The notes beneath the pieces are model-generated. The model ran no database searches, had not been told where the DNA came from, and worked only from the letters and a program-made list of their open reading frames with translations. Below, piece after piece: positions 5,495-41,424 of a stretch of DNA of 64,000 bases. The translations under genes were made by a program, and so were the position numbers. The stretch is from Bilabrum cf. latius. Its lineage: Eukaryota. Each line of letters begins with the position of its first letter. Position 1 is the first letter of the stretch. The stretch is from assembly GCA_965178125.1 (NCBI GenBank), contig OZ237746.1, positions 124,001 through 188,000 on the forward strand, in the 5' to 3' direction.

Positions 5495-6119
5495 AGGCAA
5501 TAGGGTGGTGGAGTGGACGTTGCCGGGGGCAGCAGAGCGGCTGGAAACAAGGGTGTGGACGGATCTACTTTCTGATCAGCTGGTTTCCTCGCAAGCGAAT
5601 TGGCATGATGATTGGGGAATAGGTCGTGGAGAACTCTGGGTAGAATCCAGGATATTGAAGCCTGGCTGCCGAATGCGACCACTGGCAACCATGATGATAG
5701 GTCGCACGTGCCAGTGATTCATTCACGTTACATTTAAGCTGGCAAAAATGCCTCGGCCAGCACTCAGCTTTTACATTGTATCTCTGTAAGTATTAAATGT
5801 ACACTTTAGGCCATCTAAAACTTGACTTCCAAGTTAAGCAAGCGAGCGGACAGGGTCAAACGTACTCGCGCTGACTTCACAGGCTTGTGCCGTGTATGTC
5901 GTGATAAGTACGACCGTCGTTGGTGTGTGCTGTATATACTGAACATATGCTACTGACGATGCGTCAGTGCGCGAGAGCTTTGTGCTGTGCTTAGGGCCCA
6001 GCATAGCGCCAACTCGTCCCTGCAATATTTTCCGCTATAGCCCCGTCTTTCACAAAGCTCGCCAACGGCAGCAGTATCTATGCAATTGTCCTCGCGATGG
6101 ATTTCATCATGTGTATTTG

Positions 6120-11843: not shown

Positions 11844-14800
11844 TCACTGTGGCACGCCTGGACCAGAGCATTGGACCACTTCCTTGACAGTCCCACACAC
11901 AACCATGCCCTGCAGAGCTACGTCCATGTCGCAGGAGAATCCGGTACGCAGTGGGGTGACATCGAGAACCAGGTCGAACATCTAGAGCGACTCCCTCGCA
12001 GCCTCTCTGTGCAAGACACCCACTTCGCCTCTGGAGGCGCCCCACTTTGCATTCCCTAGACCTACGGAAGTGTTGTCTAGGAATTCGCTAAGTGTAAGCT
12101 CGCCGCCGTTCAGCGTCCTCTGCCTGGCCTCCATTCCCAAGAGGCCAGAGCGCGCACGTCTGGCTAGCTCCTACTCAAGCCACTGTACCCTCGCATTGGC
12201 AATTACACGCGCCTCAGCGAGTGGCAGGCCCGGACTCAGACCTGGGGTCATCGTCAGCGTATGCCAAAGCATCTCCTTGAGGGTATCCTCTGTCGGCGGC
12301 ACCAGCACCAGCTCTCCCACTGGAGCAACCACACCATCAGTGGCGGCGCTGTTGCTTGCCGATGGATCCGCGCTCCAAGATGCAGGACCTGTCACCGCCG
12401 CATGAGTAGTGCGCTACTTGAAGGGATCTTCTCTCCCACTCCGTGTCCATCGATCCGCCTCATCCTCCAAGCCCCCGTCACTGCTGTCGTCGCTCATCCA
12501 GCCCTCTCGAGGCCCTGACCCTCGAACCCGCAGCAGCGCGGCGCCCTCGACCGCTCCGGGGTCTCTTTCGGATCTTATTTGATCGCCAAATTCACTGTCA
12601 ACGATTGATTCCGCAACAGATCCACCCAGATCCTCGCTAGCCTCCTCGCTCCTGTGCACCCCATCCTGCTACTTGCCCTGGGCCTTCCGCCTCCGCTTGC
12701 CGAGTCCCAGCATCTTGGTCCATGGCACTGCAGTGCTCCTGGCTGCATCCCTGAGAGCAAAGCGATCAACAAGGAATGGCTCCGACAAGGGTGAGGAAGC
12801 GCTCTCGGAGCCCTGGCTGCTCGGGGACTGCACTGGGGGGGCTTGACTCGCCGCCACTGATGCTGCCGAGGAAGAAGATGACGAAGACGCCGGAACTGGA
12901 CCGCCTTGCCGGTGGTGTGTCCCGCCCTTTGTCCCGCCGTCCAGGTCATTTTCCAGCCGGATTTGGGCAAGTGAGGACTCCAGCTTGCCGTCGAGCTGCA
13001 CGGTCACGACGCCATCGCGCACCACTCGCTTGGCCTTCTGCAATGAGCCTGGAGGGGCCAAGGATGGCGCCCCTCTCTGACTCTGACTCGGGCGAGTGCT
13101 CGGACCCTCTTCTCGCTTTCCTGAAGTTGGGTCGGTGCTCTCTTGTGCAGCACTACGCGCGATTGCTTGGCTTGGTCTCTGGGTGAGATTACGAATCAGA
13201 GCAGCGGTTAAGGCATCAGCAGCGGTTAAGGCATCAGCAGCGGGCTATGCATCAGCGGCGAGCACTGCCTCCATAATCGCCTCAGCACTTGTTGTACCCG
13301 TTGCTTCGGCTCGCTGCTCCTCCTCGTCCTCCTCCTCGTCCTCGTCCTCCTCGTCCTCCTTCTCGTCCTCCTCCTCCCCATCATTGGTGGCATCACCGAT
13401 GGGCAGCCCACTCGGGTCAGTGCCAGCCACCTCGACCATGAGCTCCGGTGCTACGTGAAATGGGTCTCTGGTCCCCACGGTTATGTATCTGCTGGTGACG
13501 AACCTTCGCTCCGGCAGAGCTGAAGCAGGTGGCAGGGCTCGACTCAAAGCGCGGGGTGCTTCCTTGTCCTTGATGTCATCATGGTGTGTCCCTGTTGCGT
13601 TGCTGGTCGATCCAGCCAATGGTCGCGATGAAGCTGGACCAGGGGCAGCGGTCTATTCGCCGGACACTTGCAAGCCTGCTGCCTCGGCTGCCCGTTCAAT
13701 CATGCCAGCTAGCTCGGTATCCTGCATGGCCGGGCGAGCGTCGTGCTCCATTGCATCTGCACTGCCTGAGTTTGCCTTCGATGGCTCTGCAAGTGCGCCG
13801 ACCAAATCGCCATCTGCTGCGGCGGTCCGCTCGGTATCCCTCGTTCCTGGCACAGCCAGCTTCTGCCTGACCCGGGCCGCGGCACTGCAGTCCACCGGTG
13901 CGAGCCATCGCATGCCAGTCCTGGAAGGCACGAAGGCCCTCCGCATGTTGCCATCGTCGCAGGCCGACTTGTCCCTTTGCACCTGCAGGCCAACAATGAG
14001 GGCCCCTTTACTTCGCACAATGCTCCACACCTTCTCCCTCTGCTCGAACGTCAGGTGCATGCGGTCCACGACCAGCAATGGACCAGGTGGGAGCACGGCT
14101 CGATGTTTCCCTGTTTGGTCCGTCACACTGGCACTGGCACTGACACTGACACTGGCACTTCGGCTTGCAACCCTGATGGTCTGCCGTGCCCGAACCGGTT
14201 TCATCGAGACGGATCCAGCGGCATGAACAGCGGATGATGTGGCAGACCCCTATGCATCCCGCTGGTGCACACCCAGGCTCATCTCATCTTTCTAGTCATC
14301 CAACAACGAGCCAATCGAGTCTTTCGGATCAATTGGAATCTCCTCCAGCAGTCTTCGCTTCATCTGCTTGTCATCCAACTTTACCCCCTCGCTCTCTCCT
14401 CCCGACCGATCCATCAAGTCAAGCCGAGGGATAACCTCCGTCGGTTTGCCCTCTCCGCCCAACAGATCCATCACATCAAGCCCAACGACAACCTCGATCG
14501 GTTTGTAGCACGCCCTAAACACCTCCAGCAGCTCCTGCTTCACTCGGTGGAAACTGCCGCCCAGGTCGTCCTGGGACACGCGCACTGACCCGTGGCCCGC
14601 CCGCCGCGCGAGCCACCGCGCGATGGTGGACTTGCCGGCGCCCTGCCTGCCCCGCATGATCACCACCACTGGCGGGGACCTCACGAGCGGCACCAGATTG
14701 CGGTCGGCGCAGAACCCGGCAAACCATGGGGAGCAAGCCGTCTGGAGCTGACGGATGCATCCGTACACGCCGGGATGTCGCGGCACGGTGGGATGGACTG

Positions 14801-17800
14801 GCTATCGAGATGACGAGTTTTTGTCCGCCCCGTTCGTGTCTTTTGCAGATGCTCCGCTTGCAGCACTGCTTGCTCCAATTTCATCCATATCCTACTGTGC
14901 CTCATCGCTCAAATCGGTCTGGCTGCGCATCGCACGCGTGGTGGCAACCCGGTCCAGTGCACAGCTCGCCACCTCGATGGGGATTGACTCCATCCCCGGC
15001 ATAGCGCGGGGCAGTTGCTGTGAAGCGAGCGTGGCGCGCTTGGCCCACCACCGGGCGCTCTTTGCAAGCCTGTCCTGCCGCACACGGCCCAGCGCATGCC
15101 ACGCGCTCGGGCTGTACTTGGCCTGCAGCAGCCCGCAAGGGCTGGGCCCTGGAGCGTCTGGGGTGCCCGAGCCCAAAGTTGCCTGTGCCACGGGTGCTGG
15201 TTCTATGCCAGCACCCATCACTACATCGGTGTTGAAGAGGCCCCGGTTGCCTGGCATCGTCTTGGCCCCAAACGGAATTAATGGGAGGCGACCAGTGGCC
15301 TAGTCCTAGCCCTGGCTGGCGGCTTCCAAGTGACTGCGCTCCTCGCTGGGAGCATATGGCGACTCAAACCAGTGGATGCTGTCGCAGGCGGCATGCGCGC
15401 ACTCCAAAAACGCGATACCGCTTGCCTCTTCATCTGTGTTAGCACTCATCTGCTTCTTCCAGCCCTCCATCCCCATCGACAGCTGCCGCTCAAAGTGCCT
15501 CACTAACGTCTCCTTTGCCGTAATGCTGGGCAGCCTGAAGCATGCGTACTGCTTCCCGAGCTCCTCCAGCTCAGCTCTATTCAGCAATCGGCCTTTTTCA
15601 GGCGGAGGCCCCTGCTGCTTGGCGTTCAGATGGTTGGCTTGCACGCCGGCCATGCCCACCGGAACGGCCCCTTGCACCCCGCACACCGCGAGAAGGCTCT
15701 CCTCTCGGAATGTCAGGAGCTTGTGCTCCTTGCTGCCTAGAGCAGCTAAATGCTCCCCAAGGAAGTGCTCAGGGACGGTGAACCGCAGCCCTGCATTCAC
15801 GGCCATGGCTAGGTCGCCCGCGCTGTGGTCGTCCTGGCCGTCGAACCGCTTCCTGCCAGCGGCATCTCCCACGAAGATGCTGCGCTCGTGGTCCACTTCC
15901 AGCCCACCGGTCAGGGCATGGATGGCCATGCATGCCATCTGCCAGCACCCGAGGCCAGGCTTCCTGCACCAGTCGTACGATGGCGCCATCACGATTAGCG
16001 CGGGCAAACCCGCGTTGCGAAGCATGTCTCGGATGCGTGATAGCCTCCCCAGTATCTGTCTTTCTTTGTTCTCACTGTTGGAGCTGTGCGCCAACCCGCC
16101 CTGGTTGGTGACCAGCACCACTAGGGGCAGCAGCAGCACCTCATGTCCATCGCTTGCGCTCTCATCGTCATCGCCGGGCACAGGGCCACTAGATGCCGCC
16201 AAACCACAATCAGCTGCGGCAGGTGCAGGTGCTGTGCAGGAAGATGAAGAGGAAGTTGAAGAGACAACGGGCGGCCGCTGCTCGTTTGATCGCCCCAATG
16301 CGGCTCCCCTCACTCCCCTGCCATCTCCCTCTGGATTTCTCCTTCTCCACGCCGCCATTTCCACCGCCCTCTACCGGATTCTCCTGGCAATCGTCCTGAA
16401 GTTGCCGCCCTGGAACCCTCGCTCGTTGCGGTTGCTCTCCACCAGCGTCCCATCGATGTCCATGGCAAGCACCTGCACACGGCCCTGCTGGGGCACTGTT
16501 CCCCGGACCAGCCGCCACTTCGGCTCTGATCGTCCATCTGAGCAATACCTAACGGTGTGCCCGTATGCTCTGGCCTCCTGCATCCAGTCCTGGCTGGCGT
16601 TCATGTAGCACACGCCGCCCACGGGCCCGTCCGTGGAGCGCGCCTGCCGGTTGGTGGGTGTCCTACCCAGTACGCCGTACGAGATCCACTGGTCACGTGG
16701 GATGGTCATCATCGCACGGGCGACAGGTGACACTGGCGCCGTCGATAGGTCCAGAAACTCTGACTGTGCTTCCTTTGCTCCACCTGTGCTGGTCCCAGCC
16801 TGTGAGCCGGCAGCGGCACCATCGCCCCCTGCACCTCCCTTGTTCCCTCCGAGCACCATCCGGTCCCGCACATGGCCGTCCCCTGCACCTCCCTTGTTCC
16901 CTCCGAGCACCATCCGGTCCCGCACATGGCCGTCCCCGGGCCACCCCACGAACACGTCCTGTGCGCCGGGTGCTGGTCCCACCGGTGGTCTGCCTGCCTC
17001 CCCACTCACCCGCCATGCAGTTGGATCCAGGCAGCCATCAGCACCCACACTGAACCTGGACCTGGCCCTCCTCACGAGCACGCCGCAGCCGAGCAGCCGA
17101 GTGACCTCTGCCGCGGCCTCCTGTGGACTGGTCCCATGGGGCGACATGCAGGCCAGCGTCGGGGCCAGCATCCGAATGCTGCCCTTGTGCTAGACTAGAG
17201 AGGGCGTGATGACGGGGGCACCACTGGGTGCGGAACCGGAGGAGGAAGAGGAAGAAGAAGCTGTACCTGGAGAAATAGAGCTAGCCACAGCCGGGCTACC
17301 CATGAGTGCGGCCGATGCCGATGCCGATGCCGATGCCGATCCACCACCGCTGCTACGCATCGGCACGCTGGTACCGGTGGCCCCGGAGGCACCTGGCCCA
17401 GACATAGCACTTGACGCGCCAGCCTCACCAGACTCGTCATCATGCTCACCGTGCATAGGTGCAGGGAACTGCAGTGCTGCGAGTCGCAGCTGAGCGGCGA
17501 GGGCCGGACCGCTTGCTGCCTCGCACCACGCGATGCGCCTGGCTGTCCCGACCGGTGGTCTGTCGGCGACCGGCAGGGACAGGCCGGGGACCCAGGGAAC
17601 AGCGGGGGCGTAGTCCAGCCCGCTTGGATCCGGTGGGGGCTTTGCCTTCTCTTCCTCTGCCTTGGCTGCTTCGTAGGCTCGCGCTCTGGCCGCCTGCTTC
17701 TCTCTGATCCGGTCAGTCAGGCTTAGCTGGCCTCGTGATGAGGGCTGGCTTTGCTACAGCTGCTGTCGCTGGTGCTAGATCGCCACGGCAATTGCAGTGG

Positions 17801-18485
17801 CTTCCGCAGCGGCAGATCCGCGGAATGGCTGTGATAGTCCAGCCTATGATGCTTCCACGCGCCTCCGCTTGCTCGGTGACACCAGGCCGGGAGCCGCTGA
17901 GAGAGATGCAGCGCCGCCAGCAGCACCATTGCCCCCCTAGCCCTGGCCCCCCTGGCCCTGCTCACTGTCGCTGTCAGAGTCCAGGTCGATCACCAGGGGT
18001 CGCTTGTCACCTGCGTTGCTACCAATTCCAGCATTCTGCAGCTGCCCTGTGGCAGCGCCGCTTGCGACCTGTGGGCCCGCCGGTGCGCTGGTCGACCGAG
18101 CACTTGCTTCGGCCCCGCGATGCAGATCTGGGGGGCTCATGCCAGGCGCGAAATAACGATGCCGGTACTTGTCCCTGCTGACCACCTCTCCACGCCTGAT
18201 GCATTCGTCTATCCAGCCCTTTCTAACAATGTCGATTGGCCTGTGCGGCGGACGCAGCAGGCCGTCTGGTGTTGGAGGCTTACTTCGCATATACAGGTTC
18301 GCATGGGTTGCCTGAAGCGAGCTGTGCGGAGATACTACCACTGCAGACGCTAAAATCGTGATGTCTGGCGCCATCCGCCGCAAGAATATGCTTTTACGCA
18401 ACCTGGACTGCTTGTCAACGAGCGCTACATACTTTCGAACTGTGTTCTTTGAAAAAGCCTGATCAACCGCAAAGACTACGTCCAT
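11844..18485 (-). CDS. PNKP: BRCT plus polynucleotide kinase 3'-phosphatase (PNKP-like) protein, ~2213 aa (TAG=Gln)
   Basis: A single 6.6-kb frame runs from ATG 18485 to TGA 11844-11846 with ~18 TAGs and no TAA/TGA. It has a BRCT-like IVRKGWIDECI. HAD phosphatase motifs are MDIDGTL, VTNQGG, RKPGLG, FVGDAAGR and DHSAGDLAMAVNAGLRF. The kinase P-loop is MRGRQGAGKST followed by VSQDDLG. Confidence 0.85.
16826..16937. repeat. Tandem 54-bp duplication in the PNKP-like gene (GDGHVRDRMVLGGNKGGA x2)
   Basis: Identical units start at 16826 and 16880. Confidence 0.9.
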
Positions 18486-18843
18486 TCGATGTATATATCA
18501 ATTTTATAATGGATCTGATACACTCAGTCGCAAAGTACCCTTGTATGTGAAATGAATTGCAGTTGAAGCACACTTTGAATTCGCACTCGTCATCATGAAT
18601 GGTCGCTGGCTGTGGTCTGGTGGTCGGACGCCCCCCGGTGGACCCCAATCGGAATCTGACGAATGTCAAATACTTGTCAATGGCCAGCCAGACGAATATG
18701 GCACCAAGGTGGCGCTATACAGGCGAATTGCTCTTTCGTTTTGGTATAGAGCTGGCCAAAGCAGTCCGAGAGCAAAATCAAACTTTGTAGCGTGTTGGTC
18801 GCCGGCAACAAGGCACGCTAACGTTGTTCAAGCACAGGCTCCA

Positions 18844-21800
18844 ATGTCTGGCTCTGGTGACCTCGAAAAGTACTATGACAGATCCAAGATACCAAAACAT
18901 GACCCCGATAAGTTCAAGGGGAAAGTTCTTCGACCAGCGGTAAGGACGGCTGTCGCATCATGCATCGGGCATTGATTGGCATGCAAAAACGGATTTGCAT
19001 GGTCGCTGCCACTTTTCTCACACTGCAGACATTTCGGGCTTTCCTTAACGATTATCAAGTTTCTGTGGCCGAAGCCGCACAGAGAGCCGCAGTCGACCCA
19101 GCAATGCTGCAGCAATGGCTCACTGGTAAGATGCGCTGCAAGCGTACTACATCGACTGCTGTAGTACGCCTCGCCTTTCAGCCCCCGGCGAAATGCCGCA
19201 ACTTCGTTACGATGCGCCTAAGTATTTGCCATCTTTTCCGGCATAGCAATGACTGGCAAACGCAAGGCTTCGAGAATTGCTCGTGATACTTGTACCTTTT
19301 TCAGATTCTGTCGATCAACCGGCAGCGCTTTGTTCGCGATAATTTGGTTATCGCAGGCTCCATGCGGAAGAATCCGCAAGTTCGAAAGTTTCTAGTGCCG
19401 CGTTTAATCGCCTTTAAGTACGAGGAGCGGGAGTTCCGGAAGCGAGCGTTACAAGCCAAGCGAGAGCTGGGCCAGGCCGACGAGACGGAGCTGCAGCAGC
19501 ACCCGCAAATGGCGCACGTGCCCATGCATTCGCTCACGCACAGACCTAACCACATCGATGGAATCCAGTCTGGATTGGCCACGAGTGGCGGCCTCAGCAG
19601 CAGCGGGGGAGGAGCCAGGATGCAGCAGGCCGCCCTGGGAGCCGGACTCGGAAGCGCCCTTCTTGCGGCAGCAGCAGGTGGCGGGCTCGGGGGGAATCCG
19701 TGGGCGAGTATCACCGCAGGAATGGGGGGGCTTGCCCCCTGGTCGGGGTCTGTGACCCCGAATCTGCTGGGGGGTCGCACCACCCACCCGGGGGGTGTGC
19801 AGGTGGGTCCCCCTGGCTTCATGCAATCCATGCTCCCGCATTCGCAGGGAGCAATGCCGCCCACATCGGCGTACATGCAGGCCACCACCGCGGGCATGCA
19901 GCCCCGCCCGGACGTGCCGGACAGCAGCCGAACGAGCGGATGGGCAGCGAGCTCGCCTGCCTCCAGCCACGCCCCCTCTGCTGTCCCCCTGGAGTCGCAG
20001 GTGGTGGCCCCTGGTTTCCCCATGGTAAGAGCAGGGGATGGCAGCCGCCCTGCGGTGTCCTCTGCCGGGTCTACACACGCAGCATAGGTGGCACCTGGCA
20101 GCAGTGCTGGGGCTGGGGCTGGGGCTGCAGGTGCCAGCGGTGCTGCTTCAGGCGGTGCTGGCATGTCTGGCGCGGAGGGCCCACCCGCTCTGCTGCATGA
20201 CTACACCACCATGCTGCTGTGGAGGGCGCTGCATGCTGCGGACGGGGCGGGTGGATCGGGGAATGCATCGCACGGTGGTGCTGCCCAGGGCCGCAGGGGT
20301 CCCATCAAGAGGAGGAGGCTTGAGCGAAGGGGCGCCCGGGGAGCCTCCAGAGACCATGGGGATGATGAGGACAGCATTGATGTGCCGCACCACCACCACA
20401 TCCACGACCCGATCGGGGGGGAGGTGCTGATCGCAACAAGCTCGCAGGCGGCGTGGTGGGATAGGCGCGCACACGCCGCGGTCACAGCTCTGACCAGATC
20501 AGCGAGGATGGCGGCAGCTGCGGTGAGTCAGGTGTCAGGTGGCAGCCCCCCTCTGGTGCCAGGCGCACCTGCTGGGGCGAGTGCGACATCAGGTGCTGCT
20601 GCTCCAATGATCGGCTCCGACATCCCAGCCGGAACGGCGCAGCCCGCCCTGCCGCCTTCGTCTTCGTCCTCATCCTCTTCTTCACCGTCGCAACCTCTGG
20701 CCCAGCATGCCGCCGCAGAGGGGGAGAGGACCCTGCCATCCACGCTGCTTCATGGCTTTGAAGCACTCGCTAGAGCTGTGTTCAGGCTTCACGGTGGTGC
20801 GGGTACGCACGGCAGCAGCACCGCCAGAAAGGCTCCTCCAAAACCTGCCACCAGTGACGATAGGTTTGCAGCGGCTGGGTACGCAGCCTCCGCCCGCCGC
20901 GTGTCCCACCACCTGAGGCACTGCCTGCACCAGGCAGCAGAAGCGGCTATCGAGGCCTGCAGGGTGGAGAGAAGGGCGGTGGCGCAGCTGCATGAGGGCG
21001 GTGCCTTTAGGGACAACGGTGAGAGGGCCGTCGCCCAGAGCAGCAGGGATGGCAGAAGATCGGTGGCGGACAGCAACGGACCGTCCACTAAAACCGCCTT
21101 TGATCTGGCGGAGAAGCAGGCAGCTGCAGCCTGCGTGGCTGCTCTAGACTCGGCCTGTGCCGCTGCGTGCGTGTGCATCATGGAGGCGTCCGGGGTGCTG
21201 CAGGCGTGCAGGCAGTAGGAGAACAAGGGGAGCGGGAGGTCCATCCGGCTGCCTCCGCCCGAGGCCAATGCCCTGGTGCGGGAGTCGCTGTCTGTGGTTG
21301 AGGAGGTGGTGCTCTGCTGCGCTCGGCTGGCCAGGAGCAAGAACATGAGGAGGACAGCCATAGGGGCCGGGGAGAGTGGTACTAGTGCGAGCGAAGGGAA
21401 GAGCGCCGACGCACGTGGCGCCAAAACCAAGAACAACGAAACGGGCCCTGAGCAGGGCAGTGGCGAGCAATAGAGGACCGGCCCTGACTCCGCGCTGGAT
21501 ACGACCAGCTCATCCGCAAGAGGGAAGAAGGAGGCCCGTGCAAGCGGGGGCTCCTCCTCGTCGTCGTCTGCAGCTCTGTAGTGGTGGCAGGATCACGACG
21601 GGGGCGCGGTCGGGCTGGAGGAGCTTGCCATGGACGCGCCATGGCTGCCGACTGTCACCGACCTGATGCAGCACGACGCTCGCAGCAAGTGGGGGACGGA
21701 CTCTGGTGGCTCGGGTGTGGAGGGCAAGGGGACAGGCTCTGGTGGCTCGGGTGTCTCGGGTGTGGAGGGCAAGACGGCATCGGGAGCCGGACTAATGTCT

Positions 21801-24800
21801 CCGGGGGGCAGCAGTGTGGGCCTGCACAGGCAGCGGAACAGGGGCATGGTGGCTGCGGGCTCTAGACGGAGCAGCCAGCCCGACCTCAAGGCCCTGCAGG
21901 TGAAGGCCGACGTCGATAGAGAGGCGGCGGGCAGTCCCGGAGGTGCCAGCCGAGATGGCGGCAGTAGCCATGACAACGACAAGCCGCCGGGCGGGATCCG
22001 CATGTCGGTCAGCGAGGTGTCCTTGACCAGGAGCGAAGGACCGGGGGCCAGCGAGTCCGGGCTTGGTGATGGACGCGCTCCTGGAGACGGGGCACATGAC
22101 CATGCCCATGCCCATGCCCGTGATCAAGCTCAGGGGCCAGCCGCAGGACCAAGCCCGGACAAACAGGTGGGCATGGACATAGACGGCGGCGATGCGGGCT
22201 TCGATGGCGGCGCGGAGGGACACTTTCAGAGCATCGTGCCTCGCGACATGGGGCTGGGGCTCGCGGACGGGTCGAGCTTCGGACCGGGGCATGCTCGACG
22301 AAGGCCCCCTTCGCCCACGTTCTCGCAGGTGTCTCAGCTATCGGGCCGCAGCTCCAGCCGGCTGTTCCAGTTCGAGTGGCTGCCGTTCCAGACAGAGAGC
22401 CAGGGCGGCGGCTCGAGCGTGTCTGCCGGGCGATCGACCGCGGAAGCGAGCTCGAGCTCGACAGGCCCCCGGGTCCCAGCGCAGGTGACCCAGCTCTTTG
22501 GGGCGGAGGACCAGCCCGCCTTGATGCAAGCACAGGCGCAGGCTGTAGGAGGGGGCCAGTCAGCGGATCTTGCCGTGAATGCGAATGCAGTCGCACAGAG
22601 GGGCGGTGTGGGCCAGGACGACGAGTCCTGGGACGGCCTCTCCTTGCCGTCGCAAGCAGCCCCTACCGCTGCTGCTGCCGGTGCTAGTGCTGCTAGTGCT
22701 GCTGGTGCTGCTGATGGTGCGGGTGCGGGCGCTGGTGCTGGTGCTACACCTCTCGAATCGCCCAACGCATCTGCACCCGCACCTTTGCACGAGTCTGTGG
22801 CCTGGCGCCTGGTGGCCGTGGCCTCCGTCGCGTGGCGGGCCATGCGACAAGCAGCCGTGGCAGCACAGACCAGGGCCAGCCAGACCGTGTGCCTCCGGGC
22901 TGCCGTGGACGCCGCGGTGATGGTCCGCTCTCTGCTGCAGGCTCTCCCCGTGCCCCTCCTGCTGCCAGTACCCAGAGAGGCCGCCATGCAGCTGGTGCAT
23001 CCATCGGAGGAAGGCAAGCTGATGGAATCGGGCGGCGAGGAGGGGAGCGCCAAGATCGGCGACAAGCGCGCCCGGGACCAGGCTGCGGGCGACGGTTCGA
23101 GCAGCAGCGACTCTGCCAGCATCAACAGCACAGGCGCCGGCCTGCGGCAGCGGCTGTCCCTCTCTGAGCTGAGGCAGCTGTGGGGCCACCACCACGTCAT
23201 CGTGCACCCGCAGGTGGTTGCAACCGAGTGGGTGCACTCCAGGCCGCTGCTGCGCTGCGCCGAGGGTCTCATGGGCCATCGGGCAGGCTGGGAGGTGCAG
23301 GAGGCTGCTGGCAGGCTGGCCCCGCTGGGAAGCCGGGAGCACTTCCACCCGCGGCAGTACAGGATCTCAGGGCCCAGGAAGGGAAGCTCGGGGAACAAGG
23401 GGGGTGGAGGCAGCGGCGGCGGCCGGGGAACAAGGGCAAGGGACATGTTCCGCAACGCCGCGGTGGGCCACTTCGCCCCCGGCGAGCTGCCCCCCGGTGT
23501 GCCGGGTGCAGCCTTCGTCCTAGCCAGCCGACCTAGAGGGGAGGACGGGCACCAGCAAGGACAGGGGCAGGGGGAGGGGCAGGGGCAAGGGAGTGGAGGC
23601 ATGAAGAGGAGCAGGTCTGGGAGCGACCTCGCCGAGCAAATGGGACTGTCGAAAGAGGCCTCGAGGCTGGACGCCCTCGTGTCCATCGCAAGCATAGAGG
23701 AGCCCGCGGGGGGACAGCGGGGCAAGGGTGGGGCGGGGAGCGGCGCAGGCAGCAGCAGCGGCAGTCGCCCGAGCAGCCGACCGGACAGCAGCGGCGGCTC
23801 CCGATCCAGGAGCATTTCCGGCTCCGATTCCTCGGATATGCGGTTGGGCGACTTGGGTGCTTCTAAGCTTGGAGGAGGCACGCCCCGGTCTGGAGACTAC
23901 CAGGGACTGCAGCGCACTGCGGCGCACAATGGGGGGCATGTTGGGGGTGCTGTGGCCTCGGGTGGTCTAGTTGTTGGTACCGGTGGGGGCATCGGTGTAG
24001 CGGGTGCTGGCACGGGCTTGGGACCGTAGGAGACTGCACCGATAAGCGCCGCGGCAGGTGCTGCGGCAGGTGCTGGTGCAGGTGCTGTAGCAGGTGCTGG
24101 TGCAGGTGCGCACAATCAACTGGCCGCCCTGCTGCAGGCAGTGGGTGCGGGTGCAGGCGGTGCAGCGGGCGGACTGAGCCCAGCTGCCCTCGCTGCCCTC
24201 GTGGATGTCCAGCACCAGGCGGCCCAGCTGTACCACATGGACGCTCTCCCACTTGGCGGGGGACAGCGGCCTCGGAGCGGGTCCTATGTGAGACAGGGGG
24301 CGGCAGGTGGGGCTGCGGGTGCCGGCGTGCTGGGTGCGTTGGGGATGGGAGCCGGGGCTGGACTGGGGCTCAACGGCATGGCGCTGCTCTAGCTGCAGCA
24401 GCTGCAGCACCTGCAGCAGCTGCAGCGCATGAAAGAGGCCCAGATGCATGCCGCCATCTAGTCGCAGGCGCAGGCGCACGCGCTGTCCATGCAGAGGGGG
24501 GCGCCGTAGGGTGCAGGGCATGGTGGTGCAGGCACGAGCACCAGCGGGGGTGGAGCGGCGACGTCTGCCAGTGGGGCCGTGTATCCGCCGGCAATCGGCA
24601 GCGGTGGCTTTGCTCCTCTCGCGAGCTCAAGCAGCAGCAGCAGCAGCGGTGGTTTTGGGATGGGTGCGCTGGCAGCTGCTTCCATGGCTGGCAGTGGCAG
24701 TGCTAGCGGCGGGCCCCCTGCGTCCACCAGCACTGCCACTGCCAGTGGGTGGCCTGGTGCTTCCCAGGCTGCCAGTGGATTGGGTGCGAGCTCTAGCCTC

Positions 24801-24878
24801 GGCATGCCGGCTTCCGGCGGGGTGCCTGCGAGTGGGCCGGCGGGTGTCCCTGGTTCTTTCCAGCTCCCGGCTTAGAAC

Positions 24879-24918
<40 letters not shown>

Positions 24919-25121
24919 TCGCGCAGTTGTAGCAGCTCCTGTCGCAGAATCCCGGCCTGCTGGCCCTCCGTGGACATTTCTTTGATGAAGCAACGAATGC
25001 CACGATGCAGGCTGGCATGCAACGCAGGGTGCCGCCCAGTGGCAGTGCGAGTTTTTCGGCTGGAGGGAGTGCGCCTGCTAGTGGTGCAATATCCCAGAGC
25101 ATGCCGTTCCAAGGGCAGTGA
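18844..25121 (+). CDS. Large low-complexity protein with N-terminal XRE/lambda-repressor-like HTH and C-terminal poly-Gln; putative transcription regulator (TAG=Gln; introns 18940-19028, 19164-19304)
   Basis: Exon 2 encodes FLNDYQVSVAEAAQRAAVDPAMLQQWLTGK. Frame 19305-25121 is broken only by ~10 TAGs, several inside Gln-rich runs. The stop is TGA 25119. The second donor site was chosen to keep the frame. Confidence 0.72.
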
Positions 25122-27568: not shown

Positions 27569-30500
27569 ATGCTTCCGTCGATTTTGCGAGCGTACGAAAG
27601 CGAACTAAGGTAGCAGTCCATATCGACGTTGCATCCATTGGTCTTGGATCAGCTTAAGCTTCTGCAAGATTCTGTCTCGGTGAACGACGGCGGCTCGATC
27701 GCACTCCCGGGCGCTCACATGTCATAGAGAGATGTATCGGGTCTGCTTCGAGCAATGAAAGGGTCCTAGGAAGGCCTATGGCTGGCGTACCTTGACCTGT
27801 CTCGGAATCCGCTGCGTGAGTGAATCGATACGCACTTGCGCCACCGCCTGTCGAAACCCCCACACCTAAAGCTTGCATGCTGCGCGTTTATCCCTCGATT
27901 GCATAGTTTGCACGACAAGAGGTTGCCAACACGTAGCGTAGCGCGACTGTAACCGTGTGGATACGTCTAGCACCACGCACTTCTCCTCAATCCGGCGATC
28001 CTCGCAGCGACTCGAGCTGCCAAGGTGCTCAACCATTCGCTGGCGAGTGCTCGCTTCCATCTGAGGCACCTCGTGCTGCACGATTGCGGGCTGAACGACC
28101 AGCAGACCGCGGGCATCGCCCAGGCTGCCGGCCGCCGCCGCCCCGCCGCCCTCGAGACGCTCGACCTGAGCTCCAACCCCATCGGGCCAGCCGCCGTGCG
28201 AGCCCTCTGCGATCTGGTCGCGAGGCCCCCGCGACAGGAAGCAGCCACCCTGCAGGACAGGCCCCGGGGCGGCCTCCTGCGGCTGTGCCTGGACAACTGC
28301 AGGGTTGGGGATCAGGGCGGGTGCGCCCTGGCCGCTGCACTGGGGGGTGACCCCACGGGGGGCATGGGGGGAGAGGGCCCAGGGAACAAGGGGGCTGCTC
28401 TGGCGCAGGCAGCTGGCCAGCCCGGGTTCGGGTCCAGCACGGAGAGGCCGTCGTGGGCGGGTGTCGTGGACGGGAGGGGCCAGCAGGGAGGCAGGGCCAT
28501 CTTCGGGAAGTCGCTGGGTAGCAGCGGGGGCGGAGGGGGAGGGGGAGGGGCAGGAGGGGACAAACGCAGGGGTAAAGGTGCGGCGAGTGCATCCAAGCGG
28601 CGGCGCAGGGCCGGTTGGCGGGGAACAGGGCCGGTGACAGACCAAGCGGGGGTGGGTGTGGGCATGGGTGTGGGCATGGGTGCCGTGTCCGGGGGGACTG
28701 AGGGTGGGGGCGCGCCTTGTTCCCTGCGATGTCTGGGCATGCGGGCATGCGGGCTGGGCACAAAATCTGCAGCCGCATTTGCCCGTGCTCTGGCCACTAA
28801 CGGGCGGCTGCTGTTCCTGGGGCTCGAGTTCAACAGCCTGCCCCCCGCGAGAGCCAGGGCCATCGGGGAGGCCCTAAGCCGGAACTAGATATCCTACCGG
28901 GCCGAGGCGGAAGATCGCGAGGAAGATCGAGAGGTGGCCAAAGCCACAGAACAGGCGACGATGGGCTTGCGGCCCGGATCTGCACCGGTGGGTGCAGGCA
29001 AGGGGGCGGTGGCGCAGTCCTCTACACGCGCCTCGGACGCATCCCGCAGGGCGCTGATTGCCTCTCTCAACAGCAAGGCCATGAGTGGGGCTGGGGCTAC
29101 GACTGGGGCAGGCGGAGATGGTGTGACGAGTGGAGTGCCTCCCCCGCTGCCCCCCGCGAGCGTGTTTCAGTACCCGCAGACACCCGAGGCACTGCTGGCC
29201 GGGGATCGGGCCATCCGGGGGGAACAGCAGGCCGGGGAACAAGAAGAGCAAGGCCGCCCGAATACGAGGAAAGGCAGCAAGGAGGGCGCAGCTCGGTCTG
29301 CGAGGCATGGTGGTCGTGGTCGTCAGCAGGACGAGGACAAGGACGAGGGCCAGAACCGGGGCACTGAGCACAGGGGGCCGAGCGGGGGTCGCAGTGAGGC
29401 CTCGCCTGCAGCAGGGCAGGTCTAGATCCAGCCAGGGAGTACAGGCAGAGGCGGCGGGACCGGCAAGGAACAGCACGGGATATGTACTGGTGGCAGGAGC
29501 ATGTCGAATGGGCCGCAGCTGGGGCGGTCGAAGGGCGAGAGCGGCCGGTTGGTAGCTCACATGACCCCGGTTCGATCCCCGATGGGGTTGGACGGTTCCA
29601 CTGGTAGAGAGAAGGAGAAGGAGAAAGAGTCTCAGTCATCTGGCATGTCGGGCTCAGGCGGTGGCGGGTCTGCAGAGCTAGGGAACACTGGAGGGTCGCT
29701 GGGGAACACGGTTGCCTCAGTGCTGGCTGAGCAGTTCGAATCGGTGAGACGGTCGATGGGCAGCGGCAATGGCAAGGACAAGCCCAGCGAGAAGGATGGG
29801 GGGAAAGGCAACCGAGACGCAGGGTAGTGGCGGGAGCAGAGGCATGGGGACGACGAGCCTAGGCACAAGGCCCCCTTGCCATCCCCCCTGCCCCAGTTCC
29901 AGAGGAGGACATCCCCCGCTGGAAGTGCGCGCGCCACCACTGGCAGAGGATCAGGATCAGGACTGCATCCGCACCACGCGGGCGCGACGTCCTCGTCCTC
30001 GTCCTCTTCTTCACTGCGTGCCAAGGCCAGAGAACACGCGGATAACCTGGCCAAAGCCGAAGAGAGGGGCAGGGCCGCCATGGCGAAGCAGGCACGGGAC
30101 CAGCGGAGGCGTGACAGGGAGCGGTCGGCCAAGGGCAGGCGCAGGCAGATGGCGCGGTCCATGGGGCCAAAGGGGGGGGATGGTAGTGGTTCCGCAGGCG
30201 CGCTGGCGCCGCGCACTCCCCGCACGGCCGCCTTTGCCGCGGCCAGCACTCCGGGGGCTCGGGCCCTCGGCGCGCTGGAGAGAGCGGAGGCCCTCGTGGG
30301 GAACAAACCAGGGAACAGTACCAGACGAAGGCGACGATCTGCCGGGGGCAGCGTAGGCAGGAGGCACTGGCACTCGCCCGGTCGGGACAGCGAGAGCGAG
30401 AGCGAGGGGGAGAGGGATAGGTGGGCCCAGGACGAGGAGGCGCGACGGGATTTCGAGCGGTGGCAGCAGCTGCGGAGGGGCGGGAAGGGGTCCCCGGGCG

Positions 30501-33500
30501 GTGTGACGAGTGATGGGGACGACATCTCGGTGCACACGGGCGGCGGTAGGACGCCGGGCGCTGGCAGTGGGCGGGTGCGGGCCGGCCATCAGCGCCAGGG
30601 CAAGGCATCGTCAGAGGCAGATCCGGCGGGTGCGGGGCTGTACGCGGCCGTGCGACGAGAGGCAGAGGGCATTTTGCAGGAGCTGGAGGAACAGGCGAGA
30701 GAGCTGGCGGGGGCGCTCGTGACCAGCAAGGGGCAGGGGCAGGAGCTAGGGCAGGGGCAGAATCGCATCGAAGACGCTCTCGGTGGCCCTAGTGCAGTGG
30801 CACGCGATGGCGACGGCGTGCATGCACACCCAGCCAGCACCCCAGCGCCTATGACCCCCGCTCCTGTCACCCCCGGCCCTTACACCCCCGGCTCCATGCT
30901 ACCCTCACAGCGAGCAGCCCAGCTGGCCAGCGCCTCTAGGGCCGCCATCGCCGTGCTGAGGAGGAGCCACGTGGCGGTGCTTGGCGGGAGCGGGAGCGGG
31001 GGTGGAGGCGGCCCGCAGCTGCCGGACGCTGGTCTGAACAACAGTGGCTTCGAGGCTGGATAGGTGCATCGCACTGCAGCGGTGCAGGAGGTGCTCGTGG
31101 CCCGCGGTGCTCTGGCCGCGGCTGTGGCCCGCACCGAGCAGGCAGCGCAGGTTCAATCCCCAGAGTCGTCCCAACGGTCCGTCGCGTCGCCCCTGCCCCT
31201 GCCGCACCCTTCGACGCATGCAGGCAGCGGTACTCGCAGCAATCGTCACAGCGGTCTGCAGCAGGGATGGAGCCCGCGAGACTCGGTGCGGCAAAGCGGA
31301 ACTGGCGCCGCGCGCGACAGGTCTGATCCCTCCCGGCACGACACTGCCCCATCGCGCCCCTCCTCGCCCCCCACTGTGGAGGCGCCGTCCCCGCAACCCC
31401 TGGGTGGCAGTGGGGGTCACGGCAGCCCCTTCAAGCGGGGCGCAGGGGGTCAGGGAACTGTCCCTCCCGCGGGCCCCAGCAGCAGCATCCTTGGCAGGGA
31501 ATCGGAAGAGGAGCTGCAGGGTCAGGAGCCCAGCGAGGAGCAGCGCAAGCTGGCGGAGAGTGTAGGTCAATTGCGCCGGGCGGGTGCCCTGGGCGGCTTG
31601 AGTTCGTCTAGCGCGAGCGTAGGTCCTGGTGCTGGCGCTGGTCCTGGTGCCGGTCCTGGTGCTGGTGCTAGTGCTGGCGTGGACTCCTCGGTCAACAGGT
31701 AGGGGCGCGGGTGGAAATCGCTGGCTGCCATCCGGGCGGAGGAGGACTCCGCCAGAAGGGGAGGTGGTGGGAGCAGGGCTGGAGTGGGGCGGGGGAAGCG
31801 GGGGGCTGCAGACGGGCTGGAGGGGACGCAGGGAACAGCGGAGGAAGCGGCCGCGGCGGCCCTCCCTGGGATGGTATCAGCGGTGGGGCGGCGAGCCAGG
31901 GAGCGGGCGAGGCAGCCGCACGTGCTGCAGCAGGGAGACAGGAGCAGGGACTTGAACAGGAGCAGTGGCCAGGACATGGGCAAAATGCCCCGTGGTGGCA
32001 CGATGGGGAGCAGCACAGGCCAAAGGAACACCGAGCTGGGGACTGCCGCATCTGCGCCGGTGGTGCCTCCTGTTGCCCCTGCCGGTCTGGACACGTCCGT
32101 GGCGTCGCACCCCGGGGAGGGTCTGGTGCAGCGCACTGCAGGGATGAGTTTGCGGGAGCCGCAGCCAGCTTCCCCGCCGCAGGCGCCCTTCGGAGCAGCG
32201 GGTGCATCGCACGGTGGCGCGACCAGGGGGTATCCGGGGACTCCTGTCCCCGGTTTCAAGAGCACACCCGCCCCGCCCACTCCACTGCCGGTCGACGGCA
32301 GCGGTCCTGCGGGTGCACTGCACGGTAGTGCTCGCTCCCTCATCCCGTCTCCGCCCTCCCAGCCTGCGCCCGTCAAGCACTCGCCCAAGCCCCGGCCCAA
32401 GAAGTCGAGGACCAGTGCAGCCGGGTCAGGCGCAGCACCGCAAGGCACCGCACCGCCTGACCCAGCCCCCACCTCCCAACGACCCCGCAGCCTTGTGGCT
32501 CCGATCCAGGACCCGAGGCGGCTCCGGTACCCGAGGCGCAGGCCCGCCGCCACGCACCGCGAGACGCACGGGGGGGTGGGCCTGGGGGCGCTGGGGGCGG
32601 CGCCTGCCCTGCCGGCGCGCGCGAAGTTGGGTGCATCGCACGGCAGCGCAGACATCGAGGTGCGGAGCGACGATGATGCCGATGCGGTGCCGGGTGCATC
32701 GCACGGCGGTGCACTTCTGGGCGAGGACGAGCAAGGGCAGGCGGTGCTGCAGGAGGCGGCTGCGCGGCGGCAGGCGGTCGATGATCTGGTGGCAAGCGGG
32801 ATATTCGGGCCAGGGGCCGTGACTGCGGTGCAGCTTGGTGCTGGCAAGGCGTCGGCAGCAGCAGTAACGGCAGCAGCACCAGCACCAGCAGTCAGCGGGT
32901 CCAGCGTTGGGACAGCCGGAGGCAAGGGGAGCGCAATTCAAGCAGAGACCAGAGGCACCGGCCCTGCATCTGGCCTAGTCCCCGCTGAAAGCAAGCCAGC
33001 CCACCCCGCACCTGCACCTGCCACTGCCACCGCCACTGCCACTGCCACTGCCAGCGATGCAACAGGGCCAGCCACTGCCAGCGCGAGGCCAACCCCCCGC
33101 AGCCCGGGCCAGCCCCGGGGGCTGCCAACCCTCAGGAAGCCCTCGCCCCCACGGAGGGTCAGGGCCCCCGGGAACAGCTTGGGTGCACTGCACGCAGGTG
33201 CGCGGGGGAAGAGAGGGAGTGCTGGGGGCGTCAGCTCCGGCAGTCGAGATGCACCGCACGGTGGTGCATCCGGTGCGGTGGAGGACGGCCAGGGCCAGGC
33301 TGGGCCCAGTGCACAGGGCGGTCGTGCCAACGGCCACAGCGGTGTGACGAGTGCGCTGCACGTGCGGCGGCCGCCGCTCGAGGCCAGCACGAGCCAGGAG
33401 GCGGGGGGCGCTCTCAGGTCGGCCGTGTATGGCGTGACTCCGGTGGGGTCTCCGGACCCGGTGCCGGGGGGCTAGCGGAGGTCAGGGGCGGGGTCCGGTG

Positions 33501-33631
33501 GTGGCAATGGATCTCCGAGCAGGGATGGCAGCTTGAAGCGGGCGGGGGCGGGGGCGAACCTGGTGGAGCGACTCGGCCAAAGGGAGGTCAGGCCGGCTGG
33601 GGGCCGTGGACTTGCGGGACACGGTCGCTGA
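27569..33631 (+). CDS. RNI-like leucine-rich repeat protein with long disordered C-terminus (TAG=Gln; intron 27816-28007)
   Basis: LRRs are LAYLDLSRNPL, LRHLVLHDCGL, LETLDLSSNPIG, LLRLCLDNCRVG, LRCLGMRACGLG and LLFLGLEFNSL. A phase-1 intron GTGAGT...CGCAG joins the frames. There are ~9 TAGs, and the stop is TGA 33629. Confidence 0.82.
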
Positions 33632-33911
33632 GAGGATGTAAAACGGGAGTGGAGCACCCACGGCCGCGGCGGACGGTCTACGATAGCGGTTGTAAATGTG
33701 CCTGGCTCTTCTGGTTGCGGCGCCCCACCAAAATTGACGGAACCGGCACTAAAGCCACTTGCGCGGCGCCGAACTGTGATTTGAATTATTCGTGTCACAC
33801 AAGCATTGATATTTTGGCGCGCACTGTAGCCTTGTTGTTGTAGCAGTCGAAGCAGTCAAACGAATCTTCCAGCGCCACGATACGCATAGGCTCGTGCGCA
33901 TAGTTGGCGGA

Positions 33912-35552
33912 ATGTCGAGCGATCGCGAATTTATAGAGTCCGGCGATTCTGGCTGCGACGTCGAAGATACAACGCAGGTTCTGCAGAACAGGCGCAACCA
34001 GAGCAACGGTGCCTCTTCAGGACGACTTTCTTACGTAGATGCCCCGTAGCGCCTAGAAGTATCGACTGGATTGGCCATTCTCTCTTTGCCACTCCCAGTC
34101 TGGGGCCGACCGGTCATCAAACCAACGCGATTCATGCAAAATGGCGCTCCGCGCCCGGTCCATGCCCCTCATATAAAGGAACAAATAGGCAGGAAGCGTA
34201 AACGAGTGCGCTCTCCCGCCAAGGCATCTGTGGCTGCAGTACAGCACATGCCAACGTCTGGAGCAGCTGCCGCTGCAGCCATGGCTGCATCACAAGCCGC
34301 CGCGCACGCGGCCGCCAGTAATACGGTGGCCCAGTCAGCGGAAATGCAGTCTAAGCGTGCGCCACCCACTGATTTAAGCAGTTCTGGGGTGCCTAGTCCT
34401 ATGAACTTAGCGGCAGTCGCACTTGCCGCCAAGCGGGCCGCGCAGCAGGCAGCCGCACAGCTTTCAGTGGCTGCCAGTGCCAGTGCCATTGATGGCTCGG
34501 CCGGCCTGGGAGCCCCACTGTACCCAGTGATTACGCATGCAAGCAGTAGCAGTAGCAGTAGTGCCATCAGCGCAGCAAGCGCCAGCGCCAGCGCCTCTGG
34601 AAGCACCAGCGCCAGTGCCAGCGGTGCAGCAGGTTCCGCTGCAGGCGAAGACTCCCAGGCCCCCAAGCGACGACGGGTAGGCGGCTCTCCCAGCGGGGGC
34701 CAGCACCAGTGCCCCCACTGCGACAAGAGCCTTTCCTCCGCTGGCACCCTCAAGTCGCACATCGAGGTCCAGCACCTTGGCATCAAGCGGCACAAGTGCC
34801 CCCACTGCGAGAGGCGATTCGGGCAGAAGGTCCTGCTCACGGCGCACCTCCTGTCCGCGCATCAGGTCGGAGAGGGCCATAGGTGTGACGAGTGCGACAA
34901 GGTGTTCGCGGACAGCAGCGGGCTAGCGAGGCACGTCCGGGTGGTGCACCTAAAGGTGCCCCGCGTGAGGAAGGACCACGACCCATCGGCCCATGCTGCA
35001 GTGGTGTGCGAGCAGTGCGGCAAGCGGTTCCCAAGGCTGGACCGGCTCAAGCGGCACATCAAGACCGTGCACGAGCAGCAGCGCGACTTCGAGTGCGGCG
35101 TGTGTCGCAAGCGGTTCGCCAGCCAGTACCACCTGGACCGTCACCTGCTGCAGGTACACGCCTGCGACGTCTGCGGGGAGCTGTTCGAATCCGGGACACT
35201 CCGAGCGCACATGGTGAGCGCGCACTACTGCGAGTTCTGCGGGAGGTGTTTCAAGGCGGACCGTGACCTGTGGGAACACAAGCGCACCGACTGCCACCTC
35301 GGGGGGGTTCCGGGGGGGAGGAAGTGCCACGAGTGCGGGGTCACCGCCACGACTGCGATGAAGATGCTGGCTCATATGCGGTCGAAGCACCCCTAGGATG
35401 CAGGGAACAAGGCTGCTGCTGCTGCGAGCAGTGCAAGTGGGGGTGCCAGCCTGGGTGCCAGCAGCAGTGCAAGTGGGGGTGCCAGCCTGGGTGCCAGCAG
35501 CAGTGCGAGTGGGGGTACGGCGAGCGACCAGAAAGCGAGGGAAACGACGTGA
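33912..35552 (+). CDS. C2H2 zinc-finger protein, ~8 fingers (TAG=Gln at 34047 and 35394)
   Basis: Repeated CxxC-x12-HxxxxH units such as CPHCDKSLSSAGTLKSHIEVQH and CEQCGKRFPRLDRLKRHIKTVH. Runs from ATG 33912 to TGA 35550. Confidence 0.9.
35427..35516. repeat. 36-bp tandem repeat (~2.5 copies) encoding SSASGGASLGAS in the zinc-finger C-terminal tail
   Basis: Unit agcagtgcaagtgggggtgccagcctgggtgccagc. It preserves frame and lies downstream of TAG 35394. Confidence 0.85.
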
Positions 35553-37448: not shown

Positions 37449-37671
37449 TTGCAGGTAGGTGCTCATCGTGCTGCCCGCCGCAACCGTCGGCCCGGCGTGT
37501 TTTGAAACCGGAACAAGGTGCTGATCTGTGCGCGTTCTTCTTTTTGCCCCAAACACATCGGTGCTCTATATATCGGCCATAAAAGGTGCTCCTTGGGTGT
37601 ACTTGGTATACAGTTCAGCGAGTGTATCGGTCTGATTTAGCTTTTCGCAGAGCCATTCTAAGGTTCTTGCG

Positions 37672-40389: not shown

Positions 40390-40749
40390 ATAAATCCATG
40401 ATGGCGCACGGACGCGCTGGGCTTCAGGTGAAACGGCGGTGATTTAATGAGATACGCTTGTTTTATCATCCAAAAAATGGAACATGTGGATCTGGGTATC
40501 TCGTGTGATCTAAGGCGCATCGGGTCGCGATCTGATCTGGACCCAGCGGGTGGAGCTGATGGACATTTTCCCAGCAGTCGGCCTGATTGAAACCAAACTG
40601 CCTGCATTCATAAGCAAGCGTACACTTTGAGTCCAGAGCCAGCGCATGCCACGGCAGCTAGTGGTTCGATTGGCGGCAGCGTGACCCATCTGAAAGGTAG
40701 GCGAGAAAACTTGCACATGCACTGTGACGGCGCAAAAGTACAGTTTTCT

Positions 40750-40835
40750 CGACAGCTGCAGGATTCGAACCTACGCGTGCACTCAAGCACACTCGCTTAG
40801 CAAGCAAGCGCCATTAACCACTCGGCCAAGCTGTC
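40750..40835 (-). tRNA. tRNA-Ser(GCT)
   Basis: Cloverleaf with acceptor GACAGCT/AGCTGTC and discriminator G, D-arm GCCGAGTGGTTAATGGC, anticodon arm CTTGC-TTGCTAA-GCGAG, a long variable arm, and T-arm GTAGG-TTCGAAT-CCTGC. Confidence 0.95.
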
Positions 40836-41424
40836 ATGCCCCCATGCCAATATTCTTGCATACAACCTCGAATATGGATTCAAGGTTGTATGCCTCCCCA
40901 GCGGAACAGTCACTGTCAACCTACTCATCCCCACCTGGATACCCGACTGAAGCAGCCGCGCGCCGTGCAAAACGAATAGCTGCGCCGTAGTAGTCCAAAT
41001 GCAATCGACGTGGGAGACTTTTCTGTTCAGGTGCGGACGGGAGAGCTAGCCCTTCAGTCATGTATTCTGGCGGGATGACACCGCAAAGGGTACCAACATA
41101 CCACGTAAAGATAATTCAATTGGATAAAATGTCAAATCTAGTATCAGACGCAGCCAGCGATAGTTCGATTACTATACGGCCTGCAATGAGATTTTGGGCC
41201 GGATCTGGAAATGACACAGCACACTACTGACGGCTAAACACAAGTAGATGATGAAACAGTGAAACAGTCACCGCCATTAATCCAGTTGCATCGCAATGAA
41301 TCGTTGATTACCGCCAGTTTGCTGAAAACAGCAGCTGACTTGCCCGCACGTGCAAGTGCACTGCACTGCAGCTACAGATTGTCCAAGACCTGTCGTGATA
41401 TCGGGCCCATTTCACCTGGAAAGT

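Follow-up and report, generated by a model that had tools for sequence, protein, structure and literature searches.

In-frame TAG in a GC-rich eukaryotic nuclear window is probably read as glutamine, with TGA and TAA kept as stops

Frames and genes of the window

The window analyzed here is a 64,000-nucleotide stretch of contig OZ237746.1 (assembly GCA_965178125.1, Bilabrum cf. latius, positions 124,001 to 188,000), and the subject is the meaning of the TAG codons that lie in frame within its genes. An original prediction, drawn from glutamine-rich tracts in which TAG and CAG interchange, held that TAG behaves as a synonymous glutamine codon. The strings on which it was built are present where they had been placed: CTC TAG CTG CAG CAG CTG CAG CAC CTG CAG CAG at 24390 and TAG AAC CAG CAC (CAG)11 CTC GCG CAG TTG TAG CAG at 24873 on the plus strand, and ATC TAG CAC CAG CGA CAG CAG CTG TAG CAA on the minus strand, where the TAGs occupy 17777-17775 and 17756-17754. 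All five of these TAGs are in frame, and they fall within two very long frames that are free of TGA and TAA (Table 1). The frame that holds the plus-strand tract, 19287..25121, matched no Pfam family, even at E values of up to 1.

Under the standard code, no stop-to-stop frame of the window exceeds 826 codons. If TAG is treated as a sense codon, the five longest frames grow to 2217, 1944, 1892, 1513, and 1501 codons; when TGA is read through instead, although it is nearly twice as frequent as TAG, frame length does not exceed 1231 codons. Reading TAA through on top of TAG merged no long frames, and only extended one frame from 1892 to 1935 codons and another from 917 to 921. The 18 frames that we took as genes comprise 17,601 codons, with 92 TAG, no TAA, and no TGA in frame, whereas the other two frames of the same stretches hold 125 and 118 TAG, 64 and 50 TAA, and 290 and 243 TGA, respectively. 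Because stops occur out of frame at about 1.5% per codon, the TGA- and TAA-free frames of 1500-2217 codons, which carry 4-18 TAGs each, could not have arisen by chance.

The window is 62% G+C and, with TAG read through, it is filled with long frames bearing eukaryotic domains (Table 1). Three GT-AG introns, each running from GTGAGA or GTGAGT to GCAG, have a G+C content of 0.54-0.56 and no coding signal (coding score, as defined below, at most 0.06). Its eukaryotic domains, and canonical introns that join their exons in phase, place the window in the nuclear genome of an intron-poor eukaryote. Its high G+C content and its low-complexity genes of 2000 codons set it apart from ciliate macronuclear DNA, in composition as well as in gene structure.

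Table 1. Positions of the genes, introns, in-frame TAG codons, and TAA stops discussed in the text (numbering is that of the window).
Feature	Position	Strand	Basis
Retroelement: 863-codon first frame (1361..3952) overlapping reverse-transcriptase frame (1..1626, runs off the window)	1..3952	-	
TAG, codon 532 of reverse-transcriptase frame; Q in 25 of 44 homologues	31..33	-	alignment
TAG, codon 453 of reverse-transcriptase frame; Q commonest, 15 of 56 homologues	268..270	-	alignment
FG-GAP repeats	5943..10448	+	domain search
TAG at Q-consensus column of FG-GAP repeat, VRR-TAG-NIS against QKIS consensus	7308..7310	+	repeat alignment
TAG at the same Q-consensus column as 7308..7310	8394..8396	+	repeat alignment
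TAG in partial FG-GAP unit GY-TAG-KISSQ, aligned to the Q column; weak alone, 1.8 bits	9102..9104	+	
GT-AG intron, 152 nucleotides, joins FG-GAP ectodomain to transmembrane tail in phase	10434..10585	+	
2217-codon TGA/TAA-free frame, 18 in-frame TAG; polynucleotide kinase 3'-phosphatase-like (Pfam PNK3P, 3.1e-21)	11844..18497	-	
Two in-frame TAGs, codons 241 and 248 of frame 11844..18497, AI-TAG-HQRQQL-TAG-QSQ	17754..17777	-	
1944-codon TGA/TAA-free frame, 10 in-frame TAG, closing TGA; holds the flagged tract	19287..25121	+	
TAG, codon 1702 of frame 19287..25121, LL-TAG-LQQLQHLQQLQ	24390..24392	+	read from sequence
TAG, codon 1863 of frame 19287..25121, followed by AAC CAG CAC (CAG)11	24873..24875	+	read from sequence
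(CAG)11 poly-glutamine tract	24885..24917	+	read from sequence
TAG, codon 1882 of frame 19287..25121, QLAQL-TAG-QLLSQ	24930..24932	+	read from sequence
GT-AG intron, 192 nucleotides, joins upstream LRR exon to 1892-codon frame in phase	27816..28007	+	
C2H2 zinc-finger array	33810..35552		domain search
FHA and protein kinase	37636..40389	+	domain search
TAA closing the FHA-kinase gene	40387..40389	+	
tRNA-Ser(GCU), the window's sole tRNA gene, after the kinase gene and before the first LRR paralogue	40749..40836	-	
RNI-type LRR paralogue a	41487..43616	+	domain search
TAA closing LRR paralogue a, one codon from the closing TGA of paralogue b	43614..43616	+	
RNI-type LRR paralogue b	47363..49564	-	domain search
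MFS_2 transporter; nearest Atlas clusters eukaryotic MFSD13A/TMEM180-like	54855..57365	-	
GT-AG intron, 188 nucleotides, joins the two halves of the TmcB-like gene in phase	59361..59548	+	
TmcB-TPR/PAS protein	59461..63999	+	domain search

Coding signal around TAG and the use of TGA and TAA

To follow coding signal across TAG, codons were scored by codon-usage log-odds, always excluding the tested gene from training. For 83 TAGs, this score averaged 0.211 over the 30 codons before the TAG and 0.152 over the 30 codons after it in the same frame, whereas the same downstream codons gave -0.125 and -0.176 in the other two frames; the frame of the TAG itself scored best of the three downstream in 62 of the 83 cases. 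The flagged stretch at 24390..24932 scored 0.207, comparable to gene cores. TAG in this window is a sense codon, tolerated in frame.

A quite different account is that the TAGs go untranslated, as parts of introns (for example at YAG acceptor sites), in pseudogenes, or as assembly errors. The window does have three real introns, and one of them contains the TAG at 27968-27970, which lies upstream of the first ATG of its frame; there is also a GTGAGA 105 nucleotides, a multiple of three, upstream of the TAG at 24390. The candidate intron which this would define, 24288..24392, was rejected, since it has a coding score of 0.33 and a G+C content of 0.73, far from the values of the real introns. 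More generally, the 30 codons upstream of TAGs score like gene cores, and a GTGAG lies upstream in phase for 12 of 78 TAGs, no more often than it does for CAG (57 of 493). Decay or sequencing errors would also have produced TGA and TAA, neither of which is seen in frame, and the in-frame stops of the retroelement recur in its other copies. With coding sequence upstream and no TGA or TAA in frame, we rejected TAG as an intron acceptor, a pseudogene lesion, or a sequencing error, and give this account next to no credence.

It could be argued that TAG has a dual meaning, glutamine in gene interiors and stop close to certain gene ends, as in Condylostoma, karyorelicts, and Blastocrithidia. In 8 of the 14 frames that have both a TAG and a closing TGA or TAA, the last TAG comes 2-62 codons before that closing stop, some of the tails that follow it score as non-coding (-0.18, -0.03, 0.04), and LRR paralogue a could end equally plausibly at its last TAG. 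The coding score is also slightly lower downstream of TAG than upstream, and TAG still terminating at some gene ends might explain this fall. However, TAGs show no positional bias within their frames (Fisher combined p=0.13; Kolmogorov-Smirnov against uniform p=0.56), and the pooled short tails (305 codons) look coding, with a score of 0.139 that stays within one standard deviation of random core segments (0.190, standard deviation 0.051) and well exceeds the -0.030 of sequence after TGA or TAA. The dip is moreover found at in-frame TAGs generally, for example in the frames 11844..18497 (-), 27953..33631 (+), 59461..63999 (+), and 1..1626 (-), and since internal TAGs dip as the last TAGs do, it is not an effect of gene ends. 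A dual TAG finds no support in these results and seems unlikely, though TAG might still end single genes.

The closing codons of the frames bear on TGA and TAA. Before introns were taken into account, 13 of the 16 closed frames ended with TGA and three with TAA; the TGA at 10446-10448 and the TAA at 59411-59413 lie inside introns and so are not gene ends, which leaves 14 gene ends, 12 with TGA and two with TAA. Because TAA ends two of the 14 genes and never occurs in frame, only TAG appears to be reassigned. That TAA is apparently not reassigned is a point which the original prediction had missed.

Against this, one could propose that TAA and TAG are both read as glutamine, as in the UAR = Gln code, and that TAA is simply rare at high G+C. 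Among the forms of TAG reassignment, that code is the most common by a wide margin in the accounts at hand (PMC5304391; PMC11687900), and the two TAA gene ends are no proof of termination at TAA, because the TAA of the kinase gene has a TGA three codons behind it. The codon counts point the other way: the frames contain 89 TAG, 561 CAG, and 154 CAA, TAG thus making up about 11% of glutamine codons, and by our arithmetic from the CAA:CAG ratio of 154:561 and the 89 TAG, one would expect about 24 TAA in frame were TAA a glutamine codon too. In-frame TAA is nil, as against 64 and 50 in the alternative frames, reading it through joins no long frames, and the TAA end of LRR paralogue a falls within one codon of the TGA end of paralogue b. 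A glutamine meaning shared by TAA and TAG is accordingly very unlikely here.

Residue assigned to TAG

The protein with FG-GAP repeats, which has 18 repeat units and 8 TAGs, allows TAG to be compared with a repeat consensus. Two of the 8 TAGs sit in the sole repeat column that has a glutamine consensus, where glutamine occupies 6 of the 13 other units in the window and, among 1518 units taken from 120 homologues, 59.7%; a further TAG, in a partial unit, aligns to this same column (Table 1). Four other TAGs fall in columns led by arginine, alanine or serine, threonine, and asparagine, with arginine in 55% of 1666 units at the first of these, and the eighth TAG precedes the repeats. The best-matching named database relatives of this protein are bacterial (Planctomycetaceae, Actinomycetia, Myxococcota), with 30-42% identity in the best local alignment and 27-99% of the searched region covered.

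The second source of alignments is the retroelement at the start of the window, whose two frames together hold 18 TAGs and no TGA or TAA; in its reverse-transcriptase frame, TAG makes up 2.2% of codons, several-fold above its density in other genes. A homologue search with this frame gave 61 relatives, and glutamine is the residue most often found opposite the TAGs of codons 453 and 532 (Table 1). At codon 523, asparagine leads among 46 homologues (N 17, S 7, Q 5, K 5), at codon 506 the residues are mixed, and at codon 345 only 7 homologues align (C 2, R 2, P 2, D 1). Of the six database relatives with a C-terminus inside the query, five (P0064, P0006, P0010, P0014, and P0015, 43-100% identical) stop exactly one residue before a TAG of the window. 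The last residue of the P0064 fragment immediately precedes the TAG at 268..270, and at the site where P0006 stops, P0004, P0007, and P0008 have glutamine. These five proteins evidently represent other copies of the element, cut at a shared in-frame stop by gene calling under the standard code. When the frame was compared with shorter proteins, there were four matches, every one a fragment between TAGs. Public protein sets contain nearly identical pieces of further retroelement copies, cut at these very TAGs.

Pooled over sites, glutamine leads among the residues of the homologues at 4 of 11 TAG sites, 5 of 34 CAG sites, and 1 of 9 CAA sites, relative to 11 of 1335 sites of other codons, so that TAG differs from other codons (Fisher p=3e-6) and is not distinguished from CAG and CAA (p=0.19). 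The summed log-odds over 12 TAG sites were, in bits, 21.6 for glutamine, 9.9 for arginine, 0.0 for histidine, -2.9 for glutamate, -5.2 for serine, -22 for tyrosine, and -33 for leucine, and no residue apart from glutamine and arginine rose above zero. As a control, this decoding assigned 52 of 57 sense codons correctly, including 24 of 28 among codons with 5-20 sites.

The neighbourhood of TAG resembles that of CAG. Glutamine is the most enriched residue within two codons on either side (28 observed, 15.0 expected, p=0.0013), with a ratio of 1.87 beside TAG and 1.88 beside glutamine codons themselves, whereas arginine has a ratio of 1.21 (not significant) and serine is depleted (0.62). A CAG or CAA lies within two codons of 24 of 89 TAGs, the corresponding share being 15.2% over all codons and 27.1% around CAG; directly adjacent to TAG (9 of 89, versus 8.1%) the excess is not notable. 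The enrichment in glutamine-rich contexts on which the original prediction relied is therefore real within two codons, yet modest. Because it is no greater than that of CAG, TAG follows glutamine usage and does not drive it. TAG resembles CAG in the distribution of the next base (p=0.82), and differs in this from CAA and from codons on average. When the two LRR paralogues are aligned, CAA or CAG stands opposite two of 8 TAGs.

Some comparisons gave no information on the residue. The kinase was compared with solved structures, where the TAG in GR-TAG-ASTG aligns with a histidine of AMPK at a variable and hence uninformative position; a homologue search with the 777-codon frame 49849..52182 found no match among 7999 scored candidates, and two TAG-free proteins of the window had no exact match in the protein collection.

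Could TAG be a sense codon for another residue, with arginine as the runner-up, or serine as in Scotinosphaera, or leucine as in the rhizarian exLh? Nuclear codes with UAG = Ser and UAG = Leu are known (PMC11687900, PMC8271138), and arginine gathers 9.9 bits in the decoding, is commonest at one FG-GAP column that holds a TAG, and appears at several sites of the reverse transcriptase. The decoding method itself, however, confuses CAA with arginine, and arginine as runner-up is therefore what would be expected for a glutamine codon. Glutamine leads arginine by 11.7 bits, with serine and leucine both negative; the neighbours of TAG are enriched for glutamine and not for arginine, serine, or leucine; TAG is one transition away from CAG and occurs inside CAG runs; and the base after TAG matches that after CAG. 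Another amino acid is in our judgment highly unlikely, and TAG is most likely read as glutamine, as alignment, decoding, and codon context suggest.

The claim that TAG is a synonymous glutamine codon thus finds support in five lines that we regard as independent: frame statistics, in-frame coding after TAG, alignments, log-odds decoding, and CAG-like neighbour and following-base context. The poly-glutamine argument from which the claim arose is weak taken alone, and the case is carried by homologue evidence from outside the flagged tract.

A few features of the window stand apart from the question of TAG. The two LRR paralogues are inverted relative to each other, and a 793-nucleotide 3' part that they share is 92% identical. 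Between them lies a TAG-free gene of 711 codons (44108..46243, +); the Atlas clusters nearest to it are pectate-lyase-like beta-helix proteins of bacteria, and it may be of bacterial origin, sitting in the inverted duplication. A tandem repeat with a period of 82 nucleotides and 96-98% identity occupies 53285..53574, and a 159-nucleotide copy (94% identical) of part of the gene 49849..52182 lies upstream of that gene, at 52627..52785.

A glutamine code confined to UAG

Taken together, the sequence data lead us to propose, with good confidence, that UAG is an ordinary glutamine sense codon in a GC-rich eukaryotic nuclear genome with few introns, in which UGA would be the main terminator and UAA a minor one. 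A C-to-T transition from CAG to TAG would then be silent, and TAG would therefore accumulate wherever CAG does, the (CAG)n poly-glutamine tracts included. By analogy with other UAG-only reassignments, UAG would be decoded by a tRNA-Gln with the anticodon CUA, one mutation from tRNA-Gln(CUG), which should pair with UAG and not with UAA, and eRF1 would have lost or weakened its recognition of UAG. A scheme of tRNA-Gln(CUA) and altered eRF1 is the one argued for Iotanema spirale (PMC5304391). No eRF1 gene is found among the frames of the window.

Several observations weigh against this proposal. The coding score falls after TAG (p=0.009), at internal TAGs likewise, and a CAG control has no such asymmetry (0.230 against 0.222). 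The 64-kb window contains no tRNA with the anticodon CUA, its sole tRNA being the one for serine. The case for TAA as a stop is made of two gene ends, among few in all, together with its absence in frame. Alignable TAG sites amount to only 12 of 92, from two protein families, and at 7 of these 12 the commonest residue is not glutamine (R, A/S, T, N, C, E, N). Since the decoding misreads CAA as arginine, alignment alone separates glutamine from arginine uncleanly. Opposite the 6 remaining TAGs of the LRR paralogues stand N, E, R, R, L, and H, and the sequence there is divergent. Lastly, a BLAST of the window against itself found no duplicated DNA with a TAG/CAG difference, and no in-frame TAG inside any duplicate.

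The code variant itself is already known from a few lineages, and the window would be a further case. UAG = Gln with UAA and UGA as stops was first described in the fornicate I. spirale (Panek et al., 2017; PMC5304391), and reports of UAG = Gln with UAA as a stop followed for Protocruzia tuzeti and for two lineages of phyllopharyngean ciliates (PMC11687900). As in the Iotanema-type code, formally NCBI table 15, TAG in the window occurs in frame at glutamine positions, and TAA and TGA never occur in frame and both end genes. In I. spirale, glutamine dominates at 41% of 231 conserved UAG positions, relative to 44% for canonical glutamine codons (PMC5304391), a share similar to the 4 of 11 glutamine-dominated TAG sites here. 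Stop usage differs, with TGA ending 12 of 14 genes in the window and UAA ending 104 of 119 genes in I. spirale (PMC5304391), the eRF1 of which is reported to carry T32G in the GTS motif (PMC5304391).

The UAR = Gln code (NCBI table 6) is on record for many ciliates, green algae of the Dasycladales/Trentepohliales/Cladophorales, hexamitin diplomonads, Streblomastix, and Amoeboaphelidium. The window resembles its ulvophyte form in that TAG means glutamine and TGA is the main terminator (PMC8271138), and departs from it at TAA, which is glutamine there, and which here is absent from the 17,601 in-frame codons and closes two genes. UAG alone is reassigned and UAA kept as a stop also in the green alga Scotinosphaera, with UAG = Ser (PMC8271138), and in the rhizarian exLh, with UAG = Leu (PMC5304391), whereas the window gives -5.2 bits for serine, -33 for leucine, and +21.6 for glutamine. 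In ciliates, reassigned stop codons that mean glutamine are described as enlarging glutamine-rich motifs (PMC10942620), and reassigned stops likewise contribute to the poly-glutamine tract flagged here. The ciliates of that study use UAR = Gln; in the window, the enrichment of TAG near glutamine does not exceed that of CAG itself.

In the literature that we covered, which did not extend to subscription papers, we found no UAG-only glutamine code in a GC-rich non-ciliate other than Iotanema. It is possible, and we put it forward tentatively, that the window represents an independent and so far undescribed origin of a UAG-only glutamine nuclear code, in a GC-rich, intron-poor, non-ciliate eukaryote with TGA as the main stop. 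If so, it would add a lineage with a contiguous assembly, in which changes in the tRNA(CUA) and in eRF1 could be read directly.

UAG and UAA almost always change meaning together, UAG-only cases being a handful, and most of these are known from transcriptomes or metagenome bins only, as presented in the sources at hand (PMC5304391; PMC11687900). If UAG is glutamine, annotation of this genome under the standard code would cut genes into fragments, and such TAG-ended fragments are already in public protein sets. A genome with a UAG-only code would leave its suppressor tRNA and its eRF1 open to direct inspection, and this inspection would bear on how the eukaryotic ribosome tells UAG from UAA, and on the engineering of amber suppression.

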